A stretch of 64,000 nucleotides of DNA from contig JBEKXL010000002.1 in the NCBI GenBank assembly GCA_049512075.1, positions 1 through 64,000 on the forward strand, given 5' to 3'. Positions 14,457-41,819 of the stretch are shown here, one piece after another. Origin of the DNA: Candidatus Bathyarchaeia archaeon (GTDB taxonomy: Archaea > Thermoproteota > Bathyarchaeia > Bathyarchaeales > Bathycorpusculaceae). A model generated the notes under the pieces. It was not told where the DNA came from, did not search any database, and saw nothing but the letters and a program-made list of their open reading frames with translations. A program made the position numbers and the translations under genes. Each line of letters opens with the position of its first letter. The first letter of the stretch is position 1.

Positions 14457-14842
14457 GAAACCTCACCAGAACCAAAAAGGTGCCAGACACTGGTTAAAAA
14501 CATAGCGACAAGTGCCACTGATCCATGAACAAGTCACCGAAGCACACCTGCCAGTTGGACATCAAAAGTCAGAGGCGAATGGGTTCTCCAGATGACGCTG
14601 AACATTTAACGAAGTAACATTCGCGTGTCTCGACTCCGGCGACAAACTCTCAAAAAAAAACACCATACGCGCAGCTTTTCACGCCTGCAAACACCTCGAC
14701 AGCCTTGTCAGACCTGGGCGCCAACCTACACGCCCACCTACTTCAACTTTGTCACACGCACAGCAACATCACAACCGATGTGTGCAAAAAGAAAGGGAAC
14801 CAACTCTGAAAAAAGGAACTTGCGTCCGTTTCTCCATAAATT

Positions 14843-15240
14843 GTTACCACGCAACATTACCACGGTTGTTACCAACAAAGACCGGGGGTCGCACAAAACG
14901 ACATTGCCACAGATTACAGCAATTGATTACATCTGCTGTTGCCGAGAAAGGAGGTGGACCTGGAAAATTACAATGCACATTACATCTGACATTACAAATA
15001 AACGGAACTCGTTGGCTCTGAAGGGCGGTCCAGGTCTGTTTTCTTCATGGTTTATTACAATCCACATTACATCGGACATTACAAGCAAAAAGAGGGGGGT
15101 CAAAAACACAACATCGCGATCTTGTAATCCAACATAATGTTAGACCTAAACAAACAAAGACGGGGGGCCGACAACACAATAGTGCAACACGTTAGAATTA
15201 CAGATTGCATCTGACCTCACAAAATAAAGGAGAGAGGTCA
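14843..15240 (+). repeat. Array A: about 6 degenerate units of (ATTACA-N6)x3 + A-rich + G-string
   Basis: e.g. ATTACAATCCACATTACATCGGACATTACAAGCAAAAAGAGGGGGGTC; 14967-15172 is the exact reverse complement of 27059-27264. Confidence 0.9.
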
Positions 15241-26954: not shown

Positions 26955-27058
26955 GAATGTTTCACTCTCTCTATGTCCATCTGCCGTATGCTATATAAAA
27001 CTAAGCGTCACAACATGTGGAGCCTAGGGTTGTCTCTGTGGCCGCAGGAAGTTTCAAA

Positions 27059-27320
27059 GTCGGCCCCCCGTCTTTGTTTGTTTAGGTCTAACATTATGTT
27101 GGATTACAAGATCGCGATGTTGTGTTTTTGACCCCCCTCTTTTTGCTTGTAATGTCCGATGTAATGTGGATTGTAATAAACCATGAAGAAAACAGACCTG
27201 GACCGCCCTTCAGAGCCAACGAGTTCCGTTTATTTGTAATGTCAGATGTAATGTGCATTGTAATGTTCTGTTGTTGACCCCTCCCCAGTCGGTAATTTCA
27301 GAGGTAATGCTATACTGATA
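27059..27320 (-). repeat. Array B: inverted copy of the array A core plus one extra unit
   Basis: 206-bp exact inverted repeat of 14967-15172; extra unit ATTACCTCTGAAATTACCGACTGGGGAGGGGTC on the - strand. Confidence 0.9.
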
Positions 27321-30727: not shown

Positions 30728-30856
30728 TGGCGCCGGGGAAGGGACTCGAACCCCTGCGAGCCAAAGGCCCACTGGCTTGCTTGTCCTTCGATCTAGGCCC
30801 TCTTTTTTCAGAGTATGATCTCGAGGCCAGCGCGATAACCACTCCGCCACCCCGGC
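30728..30856 (-). tRNA. tRNA-Ser(CGA) with 42-nt intron at 37/38 (30778-30819), encoded CCA
   Basis: GCCGGGG acceptor stem, CTGGC/GCCAG anticodon stem, CT-CGA-G loop, long variable arm, GGTTCGAGTCC T arm. Confidence 0.9.
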
Positions 30857-34926: not shown

Positions 34927-35362
34927 TGCATCACCAAGCATGTGACTATCGATTACTGCCATCTAACAAGAAACATCCCGTATAGATTAGCGTATTGTTG
35001 TTAGAACCAAAGAGTCGAAGTATGATCAACATACATGCTGCTGAGAAACCAGAAACGAGAACGGGTTTGAGGAAACAGAGAAGCGGAGGCGTGAAATCAG
35101 CGTTAGTAGGCTGCATGCCATTGCGGCACTCAACAATTGAAGTTTGCAAAGCCCGCTGCAGACTAAACACGTTAATAGAAGAAGAAGGATACAGAACAAT
35201 AGAAGTGCGTTCCGCCCCAGCAAGAGCACGTTATCTCCGATCAGAGAGACTTCGGAACAGTTGCGTTGAGGGGGATGTCTTCCACAGCCAAACCAAACAG
35301 AGGCGATGTGGGACGAGGAAGGAGCCTTCGTAGTCGCCCAGGACATGAATGGAGAACTCGGG

Positions 35363-36928
35363 ATGAGTGATGGAGAAAAACTGCAAAAAGCTGTAGAATT
35401 AACCCTTGCGGCAGGGTATCAGATGAATAAGGAAGCCTTCGAATTCTTAAACATAATAATGGCGACGGAAGACCCAGCCGAAGTCATGAGCAAAGCAATC
35501 AAACAGCTAGAAGAACTCGGACAAAGACCGTTCTTCATTGAAAGAAACTTTTTGGAACGAATGGTAGAAGTGGAGAAACCCGCAGAAGAAATTGCCGGCG
35601 AACCCCTTGAGGACCGGCCAGAGCCATTGATAGAACCACAAACGCCACAGATTACAGAGAGCAAGACGCCCTTCCACCCCTACGCAAAAGACGTTGACGC
35701 AAGCATCACCATAATCGACGACCCAAGCACCAAGCTTAGCTCAAGCGGAACAATCGAGGATTACCTAGAGTATTTCCAAGACCGATTCAAACAGACAGAG
35801 AAACTGCTCAGACAAAGAATGGATGTGAAAAGCGCAGCGTCAGTTATGGACGCCTTGAGGTCCCAGTCAGGGACGAGGCTCAAAATAATCGGCATGATAA
35901 CCGAGAAGAGAGAGTCGAAACAGAAGACGATACTCACGGTCGAGGATTTGACAGCGAACATGACCGTGCTTGTGCCCCAGAATGCCTCATCTGACCTTCA
36001 GAAAAAGGCACGGTTCCTCATGCTCGATCAGATTGTCTGTCTAGACGTGGTGAAAACAAGAAGCAATCTGCTAATCGCAGAAGACATTGTCCTACCAGAC
36101 GTACCTCAAAAAACACCTCACAAAGCTCCAGTGCCAGTCTATGCGGCACTTACCTCAGACATGCACGTTGGCAGCACAAAATTCACGCGAGAAGCCTTCG
36201 ACCGCTTCATATTGTGGCTCAACGGCAAATACGGCAATGAAAGGTCACGGGAAATTGCAAGCCACGTCAAGTATGTCCTAGTGGCAGGCGACATAGTCGA
36301 CGGTGTAGGAGTCTACCCTAACCAAGTGAAAGAGCTAGCCATCAAAGACGTGCACAAACAGTACAGGCTCGCCTCAAAGTACCTTGAACAAATCCCAGAC
36401 TACATAGAAGTAATAGTAACACCTGGAAACCACGATGCTCCCAGAAAAGCCTTGCCGCAGCCAGCAATAGCAGACACTTTCCTCGAGACCCTGCAGGACT
36501 CAAGAAAAGTCCGTTCCCTAGGCAACCCATGCACCCTCAGTCTGCACGGTGTTGAGATACTAGTTTTCCATGGACGCAGCTTGGACGATGTGATTTCAAC
36601 AGTGCCGGACATGAGCCACAACCATCCCGAAAAAGCGATGAGACTCCTGATGCAGAGCCGGCACTTGGCACCAGTATACGGTGGAAAAACACCCCTGTCT
36701 CCCGAAAACAGAGACCCGCTCGTCATCCAGCGAGTCCCAGACATTTTCCACGCCGGACACGTGCATGCATTAGAATACGCAAACTACCGCGGGGTGCTGA
36801 TCGTGAACTCAGGATGCTGGCAAGAACAAACAGACTACATGCGGAGAAACGGCTTCATGCCAACACCTGCCAAAGTTCCCGTTGTGAACCTTCAGTCCAT
36901 GGAAGTCACAGTTATTCCGTTCGCATGA
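35363..36928 (+). CDS. polB: DNA polymerase D small subunit DP1
   Basis: SDMHVGS, AGDIVDGVGVYP, PGNHD, HGRS, HAGHVH. Confidence 0.96.
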   Translation: MSDGEKLQKAVELTLAAGYQMNKEAFEFLNIIMATEDPAEVMSKAIKQLEELGQRPFFIERNFLERMVEVEKPAEEIAGEPLEDRPEPLIEPQTPQITESKTPFHPYAKDVDASITIIDDPSTKLSSSGTIEDYLEYFQDRFKQTEKLLRQRMDVKSAASVMDALRSQSGTRLKIIGMITEKRESKQKTILTVEDLTANMTVLVPQNASSDLQKKARFLMLDQIVCLDVVKTRSNLLIAEDIVLPDVPQKTPHKAPVPVYAALTSDMHVGSTKFTREAFDRFILWLNGKYGNERSREIASHVKYVLVAGDIVDGVGVYPNQVKELAIKDVHKQYRLASKYLEQIPDYIEVIVTPGNHDAPRKALPQPAIADTFLETLQDSRKVRSLGNPCTLSLHGVEILVFHGRSLDDVISTVPDMSHNHPEKAMRLLMQSRHLAPVYGGKTPLSPENRDPLVIQRVPDIFHAGHVHALEYANYRGVLIVNSGCWQEQTDYMRRNGFMPTPAKVPVVNLQSMEVTVIPFA

Positions 36929-37645: not shown

Positions 37646-38887
37646 TCAGTTGGGGTGTTTCATGAGGCATCTCGGGCTGTAATCGGTTAGACGACCGAGC
37701 CTACTGTCGCCAGCAAACACGTCCTTGATGGTGCTGCGTTGGATCTCCAACCGTATCTTCTTTGTACGACCATACCTTCCCATGCTCACAACCTTCGCGT
37801 TAACCAGCCCCATAGCGTCAAGCTCGTTCACCAACGTGCTCAACCGACGTTGCGTGAGAGGCGTGACACCCACTTCAGCACACAGTTCGTCATAGATTTC
37901 AGAAATCTCACCAGTGATCGCGCCGTTAGCGTTTGTCCTAGTCAAGTGGTAAACGCTCAAAACGACGAGCTTGGAATGCAGAGTCAGGTTCTGAAGACCC
38001 TCGAAAACACGGTTATGCTCAATATGTTTCTCAGCGTCACGCACGTGCTCTTCAACAACGACACCCGCCCCCTTCCGTTCCGCAACTTCGCCAGCCACAC
38101 GCAACAGATCCAGGGCTCGCCTTGCATCTCCGTGTTCAGCAGCGGCCAACGCGGCGCAGAGACCGAGAGCAGCATCAGACAGCGCGTTGTCGCAGAAAGC
38201 CGTCCTCGCACGTTCCGAAAGGATATTCCTCAGTTCGCTCGCATCGTAAGGCTTGAAGACAATCTCCTCTTCACTGAGTGAGCTGAGCACTCGTGGGTCA
38301 AGAAACTCTTTGAACCGAAGGTCGTTTGAGATGCCAATAAGTGTTACTTTGCTCTTGTTCAGGGTCTCATTTATCCTCGTTAACTCGTAGAGAAGGCGAT
38401 CGCCGCGTGATTTCACGAGCGCATCGGCCTCGTCTAGCACGATGATGAAGATTACCCTTGAAACGTCGAGCCCGGCCCTGAGTCTGTCAAAGACCTCACC
38501 TACAGACAACCCAGTGAAAGGGATAGACACGCCCATGCTTTGACACAGACTGGCGAAGACACGGTACTCGGACCCAGCCATGCGACAATTGACGTAGCAG
38601 AACTTTACAGGAGCGTTGAACTCCTTAGCCCTGAACTCAAGGTGGCTAAGCACATACCTTGTCACGGCTGTCTTGCCCGTGCCGGTTTTTCCATAAATAA
38701 ACAGGTTAGAACTTCTAGCGCCTTTGAGCACGGGAGCTACAGTTTCGCCAAGTCGTTTAATCTGTTCGCCCCTGTGAGGCAGCTTATCAGGAATATAGTC
38801 GTGGCGCAACACTTCCCGGTCCTTGAATATCCGCACGTTACTTACAAATCTCTCGAAAACATCGTCAAGAACATCGATGTCACTCAT
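37646..38887 (-). CDS. cdc6: Orc1/Cdc6 replication initiator
   Basis: LPHR, GKTGTGKT, LDEAD, GDARRALDLL, wHTH with GRYGRT. Confidence 0.97.
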   Translation of the reverse strand: MSDIDVLDDVFERFVSNVRIFKDREVLRHDYIPDKLPHRGEQIKRLGETVAPVLKGARSSNLFIYGKTGTGKTAVTRYVLSHLEFRAKEFNAPVKFCYVNCRMAGSEYRVFASLCQSMGVSIPFTGLSVGEVFDRLRAGLDVSRVIFIIVLDEADALVKSRGDRLLYELTRINETLNKSKVTLIGISNDLRFKEFLDPRVLSSLSEEEIVFKPYDASELRNILSERARTAFCDNALSDAALGLCAALAAAEHGDARRALDLLRVAGEVAERKGAGVVVEEHVRDAEKHIEHNRVFEGLQNLTLHSKLVVLSVYHLTRTNANGAITGEISEIYDELCAEVGVTPLTQRRLSTLVNELDAMGLVNAKVVSMGRYGRTKKIRLEIQRSTIKDVFAGDSRLGRLTDYSPRCLMKHPN

Positions 38888-38917
38888 CCTAACCCATCCC
38901 GAAATTTCAAAGGCAAC

Positions 38918-39498
38918 ACCCCCCTTTCCTGTGCAGAGGGATAAGCTATGCCGTACAGAAAACTAAATGCACAACACCACAATCCTAAAAGAAGAGTAGG
39001 CTCACCGTGACGTTACCCGTTTCAAACATACACAGGCCCCACAATTTCCGCTGGAACTCTGTATTAATTCTTGAAATAATGCTGATCCCTTCCTCTTTAA
39101 AGAATATACTCTGAACGGTAAGTATGCACAAGCTATTATAATGATCACTGTTAAACATTTTAGATGGACACACGAAAAAGTTGCTGAACAAAGCACCTGT
39201 TAAACTTGATACCACATTCCAATGGAAACCAAGGGGTGGCCGTCGCCAGAAACTCAATATGATTCATGATTGTCCAAAACAAACCTAGTGTGGACTTTAA
39301 AATATTCACTAGCCTTTTTCAGCAAGACATGATGAAGCAGTAGTAACGAACACTCTGTTACACTCCTTTTCGTTCACTTTTTGTGAAGGCATTGTGAAGT
39401 TGATTTAGCAATGTCTGTTTTTCAGCCTTATTGATCAATTTATTGATTTATTTGTGGCTCTTTCTTGTGAAGGCACCACCCCACGGTTTCTACTGCAG
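38918..39498. other. Probable replication origin (oriC) with ORB elements
   Basis: TTCCAATGGAAACCAAGGGGT (+, 39217-39237), GTTCCAGCGGAAATTGTGGGG (-, 39037-39057), CTGCAGTAGAAACCGTGGGGT (-, 39478-39498), weaker copy at 38918-38937; AT-rich spacers; directly upstream of cdc6. Confidence 0.88.
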
Positions 39499-39697
39499 AA
39501 CCACATCCGCGTCAGGCTCAGCCAGTTCTAGTCCTTCTGCAACCGTGTGAAGGCTGTAACACCAAAGAAACTGCAAATCAGACTTTATTTCAATTTTCCT
39601 CTCCTTTGATTGATTCTCGATATTATGCGCTTCACCGTAACACCTATAACTTGTGAACTGTAAAGTTGTGAACACCACCTTTAGGTGCATACTGTTC

Positions 39698-40126
39698 ATG
39701 CCGGCGAGAAAAGTACGCGTGGATCTGTTCGACACTGAGGGGAATCGCTACTCGATAAGCTTCGAGGGGCAAGTGACCAGAGACAAGGCTTTGCGCCTCT
39801 TGGACCTTGTGGAATTGCTCGGGGGAATGCCTGCGGGTGGCAATCCGGGGAGTGGGTATATGGCACCCGGTAACGAGCTATCGAAGTACGACAAGGTGCG
39901 GGTCATCGTCCAGAGACACTTTCCGGCTGTCTGGTTTTCTTCGTTGGAGGTTCAATCCGTGTATGAGCAAGAGCTAAAAGAACCCATAAGCCTCAGCACA
40001 GTGTCCACATACTTGTCCAGATTGGCAGCGAAAGGGATAGTCCTGAGAACGGGGTCATCCAACAATTTGAGGTATAAAGCGGCTCAAGGTGTTCCGCAAG
40101 CAACTATAAAACAAAAGGTTACCTGA
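39698..40126 (+). CDS. Origin-adjacent protein with C-terminal winged helix
   Basis: WFSS.EV...YE......SLSTVSTYLSRL..KG wHTH. Confidence 0.82.
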   Translation: MPARKVRVDLFDTEGNRYSISFEGQVTRDKALRLLDLVELLGGMPAGGNPGSGYMAPGNELSKYDKVRVIVQRHFPAVWFSSLEVQSVYEQELKEPISLSTVSTYLSRLAAKGIVLRTGSSNNLRYKAAQGVPQATIKQKVT

Positions 40127-40226
40127 TGCAGCTCGAGTGAACTCATTTGCAAGCACGCGTGCTCGCAACGAATCAGCAAGCGCCACTTGTTTTACTTGCA
40201 GCATTTCATTCTGGGACCAGTACCGA

Positions 40227-40934
40227 TTATGTTGCTTCGCTTTTCTTCAGAAGCTTCTCCATCTCTTTCTTGACACTGTACTTAAATGGAATCTTCTGAG
40301 TCTCCCTTTCCAAATATCCTCCTTCGTAAAGCTTTTTCATCAGTCTGGCCGTATGTTCCCGACTGAGTTTGACTCTTTCCTTGATTTCAGGCGCAGTCTT
40401 GGCACCCTCAGAAACTAGCAATTCCAGCACCGCTACTTCGGTGTCGGTCAACTGAGCCATGGCTTTTTCCCTCTTTAATGGTATTACACCTTCAAAATGC
40501 GTTTCAGGCGCTATCTTGAACTGGTTAGCCTGTTCCTCTAGAGTGGAGATCTTGGAGGTAATCGCCTCTTGTGATGCAACAAAATCAGATGTTCTCTTTT
40601 CAACCTCGATCAGGCGCGTGGAAATGCCTTTTCTGTCCTCTGAATCGGCGGCAACTTTGCTTTCGAGAGCCCTCATCATTCCGTCAAGTTCCTCTGATTT
40701 TCTCGTAGCACCCTCAGTCCTCGACGCGGCAGCTTCAATTTTGTATCCGAGAGCTTCCAGCTTGCTGGCTTCATGTTTGAGTTGCCTGTTAAAGCTCAAG
40801 ACTATGTCCTCAACGGCGCCTCTGGCCTTCTCATACTCTCTTTGCGCCCTGTGAAGCTGCCTATAGTATTCGACTGCCGCAACAATGGTCGTACCGAGTA
40901 GTATGCTCAGAAGGACAAGCAATGGATCCGGCAA
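40227..40934 (-). CDS. N-terminal TM anchor + coiled coil + C-terminal wHTH protein
   Basis: LLVLLSILLGTTIVAAV; heptad-rich middle; LTDTEVAVL...TAPEI...LSREHTARLMKKLYEGGYL. Confidence 0.82.
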   Translation of the reverse strand: MPDPLLVLLSILLGTTIVAAVEYYRQLHRAQREYEKARGAVEDIVLSFNRQLKHEASKLEALGYKIEAAASRTEGATRKSEELDGMMRALESKVAADSEDRKGISTRLIEVEKRTSDFVASQEAITSKISTLEEQANQFKIAPETHFEGVIPLKREKAMAQLTDTEVAVLELLVSEGAKTAPEIKERVKLSREHTARLMKKLYEGGYLERETQKIPFKYSVKKEMEKLLKKSEAT

Positions 40935-40946
40935 CTAGCACGCCTC

Positions 40947-41231
40947 TGTGATTGTTCTGTGATTGTTTGTGATTCACACATGTTGCGTCACACATCACAA
41001 GTTTACCATTCAGAATTTAAGGATTATGGTGATCACCATCAGACAGGGCCCTCATGACGTCACACGTCACAGTTTGGATGGTAAATGTTGGAGGATGTTG
41101 TGCTCTGCGTAGGTTGCTGTATAACTCGAATTTGCGGTCCTTTTCAGATTTGCGGCCTCGTATTGTGTCCTGTCTTATTAGATGTTGTATGACCTGCACA
41201 ACCGCGTTTGAAGGTGTGATTTGTGACGTCA
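40947..41231. promoter_or_regulatory. Cluster of TGTGA/TCACA motifs, including a phased ATCACA triad
   Basis: TGTGATT at 40947, 40958, 40968; TCACA at 40974, 40988, 40995, 41060, 41067; TGTGA at 41215, 41222. Confidence 0.65.
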
Positions 41232-41708
41232 CGAAACGGTTTCTGATGGACTTGAGAGCTGTTTTAGGCTTGATTCGAGCTGTTCTCTTATCATTTCTAT
41301 GACTTTTAGATGGTCGCCTAGCTCCTCGCCCTTGTTCGGGATGTCCTTGTAAGCCTCGAGGTACTCGTGAAGTTTGTTCGCGATTTCGAGGTAGGGGTCG
41401 AGAGTTGTGCTTTCGAAGACTCCTAAGTACCCTAGTAGTAGTACCGTGTAGATAGACTTTATGACGTTTTCTTTAGCCTGTCGTAGAGTCCTGTTAAAGG
41501 CGCCGCGGCTTATTTTAGCCTTCGTTAGTCTCAAGCTGGCCTTTTCGTCGTATTTTAGCGGTTTGCCCGCGATATTTTCGGATAGGATGTCTATTAGCAG
41601 TGTTTCAAGCTGGGTTTTTGTTAAATGGCTGTTCCTAGCGATGATTTTGACAATGGGGTCGTTTATGGAGCCTGTTAGCCAGGATTGTACGCTGTCTTTT
41701 AGCTTCAA
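41229..41708 (-). CDS. Origin-adjacent hypothetical protein, HTH-like
   Basis: LTKTQLETL...ISRGAFNRTLRQAK. Confidence 0.75.
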   Translation of the reverse strand: MKLKDSVQSWLTGSINDPIVKIIARNSHLTKTQLETLLIDILSENIAGKPLKYDEKASLRLTKAKISRGAFNRTLRQAKENVIKSIYTVLLLGYLGVFESTTLDPYLEIANKLHEYLEAYKDIPNKGEELGDHLKVIEMIREQLESSLKQLSSPSETVS

Positions 41709-41819
41709 AGTCTTACCTCTGGAACATTGCTAAATGGATACGCTTTTGTATACTGGGTGCGCTTTTAAAGGTGCCGCTTCCGACGAGTCTAAGGGTTCTT
41801 TTGGAGATGCAAGATTCTT

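Follow-up and report, generated by a model that had tools for sequence, protein, structure and literature searches.

A conserved three-gene cluster beside a predicted archaeal replication origin encodes a putative membrane-anchored winged-helix protein and is accompanied by locus-specific repeats

RacA of Bacillus subtilis is a soluble protein that is anchored through DivIVA and has about two dozen scattered binding sites; Noc, with many sites, relies on an amphipathic helix. In the parC/ParR system of plasmid R1, a core promoter lies between phased direct repeats to which the ribbon-helix-helix protein ParR, encoded downstream, binds cooperatively, serving both autoregulation and positioning. 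Among archaea, SegB of the Sulfolobus SegAB system pairs with the ParA-like ATPase SegA and is not membrane anchored, according to the accessible part of a 2024 review, which calls the mechanism of archaeal segregation not understood (PMC7617429). As described in the available text of the respective reports, the archaellum regulator ArnR is built from a helix-turn-helix (HTH) at the N terminus, HAMP-like as well as sensor domains, and, at the C terminus, two transmembrane (TM) helices (PMC6396743), and TGM, the site of TrmBL1/Tgr, reads TATCAC-N5-GTGATA (PMC4158304). Here, we report on three small genes, designated A, B, and C, which lie beside cdc6 and a predicted replication origin (oriC) in a 64,000-nucleotide stretch (positions 1 to 64,000 of contig JBEKXL010000002.1, assembly GCA_049512075.1) of a Candidatus Bathyarchaeia archaeon genome. 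This stretch is referred to as the window, and coordinates are those of the window. The components of the cluster are of known kinds, namely, winged-helix regulators and a membrane-bound factor. The origin-side assembly, the family of protein C, and the origin iterons linked to gene A appear to be new. No published description of the trio was found in the literature searched, although supplements and subscription journals, which were outside that scope, could hold one, and the accessible parts of two reviews (PMC7617429 and PMC4010727) do not mention it.

A prediction made earlier for this stretch (the original prediction) had claimed that three uncharacterized genes adjoin oriC. Indeed, A, B, and C are real, single-copy genes next to cdc6 and oriC, with the following layout.

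37646 to 38887, minus strand: cdc6/orc1 initiator gene (Pfam Cdc6_C, 94.7 bits; Cdc6_lid, 83.9 bits; plus AAA domains)
38888 to 39697: oriC region, an 810-bp gap with elements resembling origin recognition boxes (ORBs) and A+T-rich stretches
39698 to 40126, plus strand: gene A, 142 amino acids, single copy
40227 to 40934, minus strand: gene B, 235 amino acids, TTG start, single copy
41229 to 41708, minus strand: gene C, 159 amino acids, TTG start, single copy

Our tentatively preferred explanation, held at a probability just short of even, is that these genes form an origin-side module of three autoregulated, sequence-specific DNA-binding proteins, in which B would hold DNA at the membrane and A would act on oriC.

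The gene order is strongly conserved. Orthologue counts cover the window genome and 40 relatives (n = 41): cdc6 was detected in all 41 genomes, A in 36, B in 35, and C in 37. Regional synteny was assessed with loci from 34 same-order genomes, 30 of which carry the arrangement cdc6(-), oriC, A(+), B(-), C(-) intact on one contig. Contig ends cut the cluster in the remaining four, none of which contradicts the order. All three genes were jointly missed in four genomes, G015 (74% complete) and G033, G034, and G035 (92 to 98% complete); other members of two of the families concerned (f10 and f11) have B and C by profile search. When the profiles of B and C were run on 301 sampled Thermoproteota genomes, C matched 136 and B matched 175, although weak B matches may represent generic winged helices. 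Furthermore, 20 distant loci were fetched and then scanned with the profiles, and the same order was found beyond the Bathyarchaeia order in six of six loci of Nitrosopumilaceae as well as in members of five further families. The co-conservation of the trio with cdc6 that had been proposed for testing was borne out, as was that with oriC.

The distant loci show the following arrangements. All six Nitrosopumilaceae loci have the identical four-gene arrangement, and the proteins of one of them are identical to Nitrosopumilus zosterae entries. All four genes are also present in four loci of three families with C inverted (L060 to L063), in a Brockarchaeota locus (L065), and in L068, where C lies 6.7 kb away. 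Two loci of family f13 (L066 and L067) have cdc6, B, and C without A. An overlapping C-B operon alone was found in L056 and L057 (family f31) and in the Caldarchaeum-type loci L058 and L059, L064 has only A and C, and L069 has only C. In families f26 and f31, four loci have C and B as an overlapping operon. Database names of the homologues are limited to "hypothetical protein," "winged helix DNA-binding protein," or "MarR family."

Protein B combines a putative membrane anchor with a winged helix-turn-helix (wHTH) domain. The wHTH, at residues 160 to 221, matches TrmB (31.7 bits; cutoff, 25.6) and MarR (25.5 bits; cutoff, 24.6), and searches against PDB sequences returned generic MarR-type matches only, at E values of at least 0.006. 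The middle part of the protein (~100 residues) matches coiled coils of tropomyosin and chemoreceptors. At the N terminus, a 19-residue Kyte-Doolittle mean of 2.14 is followed by five K/R within 15 residues, which predicts a signal anchor with the remainder of the protein in the cytoplasm; the TM call follows a Kyte-Doolittle hydropathy rule (19-residue window, mean of at least 1.6), not a dedicated TM predictor. By the same rule, the N-terminal anchor claimed in the original prediction is a family feature, as 49 of 50 B homologues have a mean of at least 1.6 followed by 2 to 7 K/R, the one exception being from Brockarchaeota. The residues of the anchor segment vary while its hydrophobicity is retained, and just 2 to 9 residues precede the TM helix across homologues. 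Depending on the homologue, 67 to 188 residues separate the recognition helix from the TM helix. The recognition helix itself, SREHTARLMKKL, is nearly invariant and is also kept in the B proteins of Nitrosopumilaceae as SREHT(A/S)RLMKKL. The juxtamembrane segment EYYRQLR..EYEKAK..DIVLSFNRQL is conserved as well, beside a variable coiled coil. The C-terminal sugar-binding effector domain of TrmB is absent, as the protein ends ~15 residues past the wHTH, and the region between the TM helix and the wHTH yielded only coiled-coil matches and no sensor or HAMP domain. With PADLOC, B had only weak matches at the wHTH level, whereas A and C had no match; a defense role of the trio was considered and is unsupported by PADLOC.

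The 294-bp gap between B and C contains a dense array of short repeats around what we infer to be the promoter of B. Listed in the direction of B, its elements are as follows.

41215 to 41228, plus strand: operator I, inverted double heptad TGTGATTTGTGACG, directly next to the C stop codon and ~155 bp away from operator II
41058 to 41071, minus strand: operator II, double heptad TGTGACGTGTGACG, upstream of the TATA box
41015 to 41030, minus strand: element ACCATAATCCTTAAAT of B resembling a transcription factor B recognition element and TATA box (BRE/TATA), conserved block ACCATAAnCTTTAAAT
40986 to 40999, minus strand: operator III, double heptad TGTGATGTGTGACG, downstream of the TATA box
40947 to 40973, minus strand: operator IV, three ATCACA copies spaced 10 to 11 bp apart, at -39, -29, and -18 from the B start

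Read in B's direction, operator I is CGTCACAAATCACA, and an A-rich, poorly conserved spacer separates it from operator II; operator IV directly precedes a GAGG ribosome-binding-like site, which is followed by the TTG start. The ATCACA triad reported earlier upstream of B is thus present (TGTGAT at 40947, 40958, and 40968), and so are the further TGTGA/TCACA motifs: the gap at 40935 to 41228 holds ten, whereas a genome rate of 1.79 per kb would predict ~0.5. Motif counts refer to a genome size of 2.73 Mb, in which the B-C gap is the densest 400-bp cluster of TGTGAY (9, compared with 5 in the next best). The TGTGAY double heptad TGTGAYNTGTGAYG occurs four times in the genome, three of them in this gap, and ATCACA-N4-ATCACA and ATCACA-N5-ATCACA occur nowhere else in the genome. 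Close TGTGAY pairs number nine genome-wide (~4.5 expected), with five in the gap. Rfam searches gave no RNA family match in the gap.

These repeats had been suggested to be cognate to the proteins encoded beside them, and their conservation resembles that of an operator. In 30 gaps, from which four same-genus copies were excluded, ATCACA/TGTGAT is the top hexamer, with 153 occurrences compared with 11.5 expected (13-fold) and presence in 30 of 30. An alignment of 25 of the 34 gaps (lengths, 270 to 330 nucleotides [nt]) has the operator and promoter blocks as its conserved columns. Among the 22 of 34 gaps in which site I and two double heptads were recognized by pattern, the distance from operator I to II is 152 to 158 bp in 16 and that from II to III is 61 to 75 bp in all 22. 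As spacings of ~155 and ~72 bp correspond to ~15 and 7 helical turns, this regularity suggests that the B operators may be bound on one face of the helix. Before the B genes of Nitrosopumilaceae, TGTGAT repeats are found in six of six loci, a close TGTGAT pair in three of six, and, immediately ahead of the B start, a TCACR-N5-TCACR pair in inverted orientation in five of six. A different view, that the repeats are due to chance and the genes are spurious open reading frames, has the shortness of the motif as its sole support; as the reading frames are kept open in 35 to 37 of 41 genomes and the motifs are 13-fold enriched in every relative and reach their highest density in the genome here, its probability is negligible.

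The main argument that B reads TGTGAY is that the motif and the recognition helix are co-conserved across classes at B's own promoter. A TrmB-type HTH that reads a TATCAC half-site has a precedent in the accessible part of an earlier report (PMC4158304). Under the preferred explanation, B would be inserted via its N-terminal helix, with the coiled-coil stalk and winged helix facing the cytoplasm, and would most likely bind the four TGTGAY/ATCACR operator clusters, spread over ~290 bp around its own promoter and ~1.5 kb from the nearest ORB. As such a protein would be unable to leave the membrane, binding of these sites would keep origin-proximal DNA at the membrane. Taken by itself, the stronger claim that B is a true origin tether or partition device is doubtful.

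Alternatively, A, B, and C could be ordinary local regulators, that is, autorepressors, with B a membrane-bound protein of the one-component type, whose place at oriC reflects inherited synteny, dosage, or timing and whose bound DNA has no structural role. This explanation has to be taken seriously, although it too falls clearly below even probability. In the manner of archaeal repressor sites, the repeats border on or overlap with TATA-like boxes, and membrane-bound archaeal transcription factors, ArnR and ArnR1, are known from the available part of the literature (PMC6396743). However, B has no sensor domain, and only the 2 to 9 residues ahead of its TM helix. Furthermore, four clusters with ~10 half-sites in 290 bp at fixed spacings of ~155 and 72 bp exceed the needs of simple autorepression, and the strict motif pairs predict almost no further targets in 2.7 Mb.

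A third explanation invokes a membrane-controlled replication switch, in which B, perhaps with C, would be inactive at the membrane until released by proteolysis or by a membrane or division cue, then regulating A, C, or origin firing and so coupling the state of the envelope to initiation. The conserved juxtamembrane segment beside the variable coiled coil of B, the overlapping C-B operon in the four loci of families f26 and f31, and the position of the genes next to cdc6 and oriC are in line with this idea. Nevertheless, the cluster has no conserved protease or sensor gene, a cleavage motif was not identified, and the B-type motif was not found in oriC or upstream of cdc6. We therefore consider such a switch improbable.

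Gene A and the origin are linked by a second motif. The 810-bp gap, directly bordered by the Cdc6/Orc1-family initiator gene (Pfam), is predicted to be oriC and has the anatomy of an archaeal origin. Its elements and the palindrome downstream of A are the following.

39037 to 39055, plus strand: ORB-like element (pattern scan)
39218 to 39236, minus strand: ORB-like element, inverted (pattern scan)
39479 to 39497, plus strand: ORB-like element (pattern scan)
39382, 39393, 39466, 39546, 39652, and 39667, all plus strand: six TGTGAA repeats, spanning 39382 to 39672
40147 to 40168: near-perfect palindrome TTGCAAGCACGCGTGCTCGCAA within the 100 nt that separate A from the convergent gene B, perhaps a two-way terminator

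Three of the five ORB-pattern matches of the genome fall into this gap (38888 to 39697), which also has inverted 20-nt arms (39220 to 39239 and 39476 to 39495) and an A+T content of 65 to 72% at 39128 to 39167, 39248 to 39327, and 39368 to 39447. The block ACCCCT..TTTCTACTGGAGA is kept in relatives, and a similar layout is seen in Nitrosopumilaceae. In the alignment, the TGTGAA repeats are arranged as a tandem pair, a T-rich stretch of ~65 nt, and a copy abutting the G-string of an ORB; the two last copies sit after the TATA-like CTATAA of A, and the repeat positions are conserved.

Protein A contains a Penicillinase_R wHTH (25.7 bits; cutoff, 22.6). An AlphaFold2 model based on an alignment of 33 orthologues (predicted local distance difference test [pLDDT], 75.5) has a beta-beta-alpha N-terminal domain (residues 3 to 40), a disordered linker (45 to 59), and a single, C-terminal winged helix (63 to 128). 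The best Foldseek matches are the DNA-binding domains of MecI, BlaI, RosR, and Fur, all of them weak (E of ~3e-3). The genome's densest TGTGAA cluster is that upstream of A (6, compared with 4 in the next best). In relatives, TGTGAA is the top hexamer upstream of A, with 165 occurrences compared with 12.4 expected and presence in 31 of 31 regions. The origins of Nitrosopumilaceae have TGTTAA/GTTAAC interleaved with ORBs (47 occurrences compared with 3.0 expected, six of six loci) and TGTGAA in one genus. Taken together as TGTKAA, the motif is present in 3 to 8 copies in each of the 35 regions that have A, against a background of 0.69 per 333 nt. In two genomes of family f13 (98 to 100% complete), A is absent genome-wide; one of their origins has no TGTKAA despite a clear inverted ORB pair, and the other has two copies, both far from the ORBs. 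As TGTKAA co-occurs with A and is absent or sparse in these two genomes, the motif tracks gene A and not Orc1/Cdc6. Most likely, A would bind the TGTKAA repeats overlapping its promoter, and as these repeats also bracket the T-rich unwinding region, we propose that A may be an accessory origin-binding factor. The presence of TGTKAA inside oriC beside ORBs and a T-rich region in two classes also counts against a purely local regulatory role of the trio.

Protein C is the best conserved of the three, with a mean column identity of 70% and invariant SRGAFNRTL..Q and LLGYLG segments. Its family is small: of 1.84 billion representatives, clustering at 50% identity assigns 310 clusters to it. C had no match in Pfam, NCBIfam, or PADLOC and none in PDB sequences at E values of up to 10. 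The structure model is all-helical (pLDDT, 70.5), and a Foldseek search against the PDB returned nothing at an E value of 1e-3 or below. The C-terminal hairpin (residues 100 to 159) has generic helical-hairpin fold matches (Z of ~8), by which residues 1 to 99 are barely covered. A distant ESM-Atlas cluster (score, 0.78) has Sigma70_r4 in 14% of its members, while Sigma70_r4 is not among the 25 listed of the 29 families matched by 33 C members at E values of up to 1; one C member hit DUF134 (E of 0.056). Thus, of the protein types assigned in the original prediction, the wHTH of A and the TM-coiled-coil-wHTH architecture of B hold by Pfam and hydropathy, while the "HTH-like" nature of C, perhaps of the sigma-70 region 4 type, is no more than a weak lead. 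Prediction of a B+C complex gave a score of 0.00, which weighs neither way on binding. P0302 (362 amino acids) was considered as a C-B fusion and rejected, as its tail is an unrelated TM helix and coiled coil and not the wHTH of B.

The region upstream of C has a third motif, which is associated with a promoter-like element.

41762 to 41769, minus strand: TATA-like TTTAAAAG of the C promoter (within 41736 to 41769)
41736 to 41753, minus strand: palindrome GTATACAAAAGCGTATCC, ~10 nt after TTTAAAAG

The 18-mer palindrome pattern occurs once in the genome. Its relaxed form, TAC[AG]-N4-7-[CT]GTA, precedes C in 41 of 46 loci of different classes, among them loci from Nitrosopumilaceae, of the Caldarchaeum type, and from other families. 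Within the genome, the three motifs are essentially confined to the locus. Most likely, C would repress itself at its palindrome and work with B. Among 33 Bathyarchaeia orthologues of C, start codons, which were picked by a custom script, are TTG in 23, ATG in 7, and GTG in 3 (41706 to 41708 in the window), and B starts with TTG in this genus; the TTG starts of C and B may hint at deliberately low translation.

Between A and B, 13 of the 34 relatives carry an insert of 2.5 to 2.8 kb, an overlapping gene pair on the strand of A (L024:4054-6637; same place in L018, L022, L025, L026, L030, L033, L037, L040 to L043, and L045). It encodes a protein of ~350 amino acids without a family match and a HerA/FtsK-superfamily ATPase of ~520 amino acids, which matches DUF87 at 44 bits and remains far under the NCBIfam HerA and CedD cutoffs. 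The ~350-amino-acid protein resembles NurA by eye, yet searches of Pfam, NCBIfam, and PADLOC were empty, and it is not called NurA here. The window genome has an orthologue of neither gene, its best match to the ATPase being a paralogue with 27% identity. As had been predicted, there is no ParA/SegA ATPase in the window: no CbiA or AAA_31 (ParA/MinD) match was found within positions 1 to 64000, and genes of the CbiA/AAA_31 type lie on other contigs of the genome. The proposed ATPase independence of the system is qualified by the HerA-type (DUF87) gene that 13 relatives, unlike the window genome, have between A and B. It is conceivable, though rather unlikely, that the cluster is an undescribed chromosome organizer of Bathyarchaeia, ammonia-oxidizing Nitrososphaeria, and their kin, in which B, with C as its partner, would clamp promoter-embedded, centromere-like repeats beside oriC to the membrane, A would bind iterons on either side of the unwinding element, and a HerA-type DNA translocase would join in some lineages; such a set would both tether the origin to the membrane and assist initiation.

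The original prediction went further and envisaged an ATPase-independent tie between origin and membrane through chromosome-wide ATYACA arrays, which would comprise the ATCACA triad upstream of B and three ATTACA arrays (A to C, not to be confused with the genes). The two hexamers are indeed one base apart, B is predicted to be membrane anchored, and the window is without a ParA gene. However, the ATTACA triads have a phase of 12 bp, not 10 to 11 bp, and each is embedded in a dispersed repeat of ~230 nt with conserved flanks. Twelve triads are distributed over nine contigs of the genome and are not clustered at the origin, and those in the window (14967 and 15054 versus 27148 and 27235) form an exact inverted duplication. 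In contrast, the double heptads are almost and the ATCACA tandems entirely confined to the B-C gap, and relatives conserve TGTGAY/ATCACR there but never ATTACA. The TCACA/ATCACA motifs noted before array A do exist (14751 to 14773), but two copies are at chance level. As the ATTACA triads are unlike the B operators in phase, sequence, and distribution, the ATYACA link was rejected, and the full model is very improbable. The ~230-nt repeat itself consists of two ATTACA-N6-ATTACA-N6-ATTACA triads ~87 nt apart, followed by a G-run, and is often flanked by GCGCGC. It lies at 14900 to 15240 and 27040 to 27310 in the window, bracketing ~12 kb, and elsewhere at C1:371016, C3:152618, C4:42236, C5:133527, C6:79345, C8:6570, C26:22586, and C29:6558. 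It could be a miniature inverted-repeat transposable element, or it could represent mobile-element ends or a family of small-RNA genes.

Several observations weigh against the preferred explanation of an origin-side module. The cluster is dispersed in some genomes. C lies 5.8 kb from cdc6 in G240, A and C lie 21.5 kb from it in G135, and C-B lies 31.5 kb from it in G058; in G065 (proteins named Caldarchaeum subterraneum), C-B lies 14.4 kb and A ~500 kb from cdc6. In G150, C is 151 kb away, and in G166, G140, and G200, cdc6 and C are on separate contigs. The Brockarchaeota homologue of B has no TM helix (Kyte-Doolittle mean, 0.21) and no TGTGAY cluster upstream. The co-variation of A and TGTKAA comes from two related genomes of one family. 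The putative pairs of proteins and motifs were assigned by proximity and co-occurrence. As A- and B-type sites share a TGTGA core, one protein may read both, or the pairs may be swapped. Finally, repeats that flank a TATA box would fit an ordinary autorepressor, and the place beside the origin could be explained by dosage or timing alone. The distances of C in G150 and of A in G065 and the missing TM helix in Brockarchaeota are also what local regulators would lead one to expect. On the other hand, four of the five measurable dispersed cases keep C or C-B within 2 to 3% of the genome length from cdc6. The genes, their domains, the signature of a membrane anchor in B, the synteny, and motifs that are conserved and specific to the locus are what the analysis shows; the pairing of proteins with motifs, autoregulation, and any role in tethering or segregation are what we infer from sequence, and the origin-side module remains our tentative choice.

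Other features of the window concern the wider neighborhood of the origin. A gene of the DNA polymerase small-subunit type (DNA_pol_E_B, 77.4 bits) is located at 35306 to 36928 on the plus strand, ~700 bp from the 3' end of cdc6; replication genes are therefore clustered there, too, on the opposite side of the origin. Another contig (G000:C20:36416-37510) holds a second Orc1/Cdc6 paralogue, which is divergent (28% identity), and most relatives likewise hold two to three Orc1/Cdc6 copies. As A, B, and C are each a single match in the genome, they are not beside this second copy. The sole Rfam match in the whole window is a tRNA at 30731 to 30856 on the minus strand (126 nt, 46.2 bits), which was not called by ARAGORN and is probably an intron-containing archaeal tRNA.

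The locus touches on two open questions, namely, how origins are positioned and segregated in archaea without clear ParABS and which origin factors exist besides Orc1/Cdc6. For both, it supplies testable candidates in the form of three small proteins and three short motifs with exact coordinates. Nitrosopumilus has a single mapped origin, as cited in the accessible part of a review (PMC4010727), and its cultured species carry orthologues. If B does tether DNA, the cluster would represent a simple, motor-free solution conserved over much of Thermoproteota and a prokaryotic parallel to the DNA-binding proteins of the inner nuclear membrane. A more modest reading would also be of consequence, as the conserved TGTKAA iterons of oriC, which co-occur with gene A, suggest an accessory origin-binding factor of which no archaeal description was found in the literature searched.

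Compared with described systems, A resembles BlaI and MecI in its Penicillinase_R wHTH and in its top fold matches. It differs from them in the C-terminal position of the wHTH (residues 63 to 128) behind a beta-beta-alpha domain, where theirs is N-terminal and followed by a dimerization and cleavage domain, in its neighbors, which are cdc6 and B with no BlaR-type sensor-protease gene, and in its presumed sites inside a replication origin. The origin-adjacent initiators of the WhiP/Cdt1 type, compared by description, are tandem winged helices, whereas A has a single wHTH. Like RacA and Noc, B joins a DNA-binding domain to a coiled coil or membrane element of the sort that takes origin-proximal DNA to the envelope. 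However, B is predicted to be an integral membrane protein, its strict sites are located in one 294-bp gap, and it has no sequence relationship to either protein. Similarly, the phased direct repeats around a putative core promoter, to which the product of the gene downstream would bind, recall parC/ParR, although the window encodes no actin-like or ParA motor, the folds are unrelated, and the locus is chromosomal and archaeal. As a presumed site-specific DNA-binding protein of archaea that may organize the chromosome, B is comparable to SegB as portrayed in the accessible part of the review, but the window is without an ATPase such as SegA, and B is predicted to be membrane anchored.

With the TrmB family, as far as the available text describes it, B shares the type of wHTH and a presumed half-site, ATCAC(A/G), that resembles the TGM half-site. 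B has neither the sugar-binding effector domain nor a sugar-metabolism regulon but carries a TM helix and a coiled coil in addition. Whereas TGM is a single palindrome, the presumed sites of B form four clusters of direct repeats, with 7-bp heptads and a phase of 10 to 11 bp. To ArnR and ArnR1 of Sulfolobus, as characterized in the accessible part of the report, B is similar as a membrane-fixed archaeal HTH protein that would bind promoter boxes. The predicted topology of B is reversed, with one N-terminal TM helix, a coiled coil, and a C-terminal wHTH but no sensor domain, and, in further contrast to ArnR, B lies beside oriC, with a strict motif nearly limited to its own promoter.

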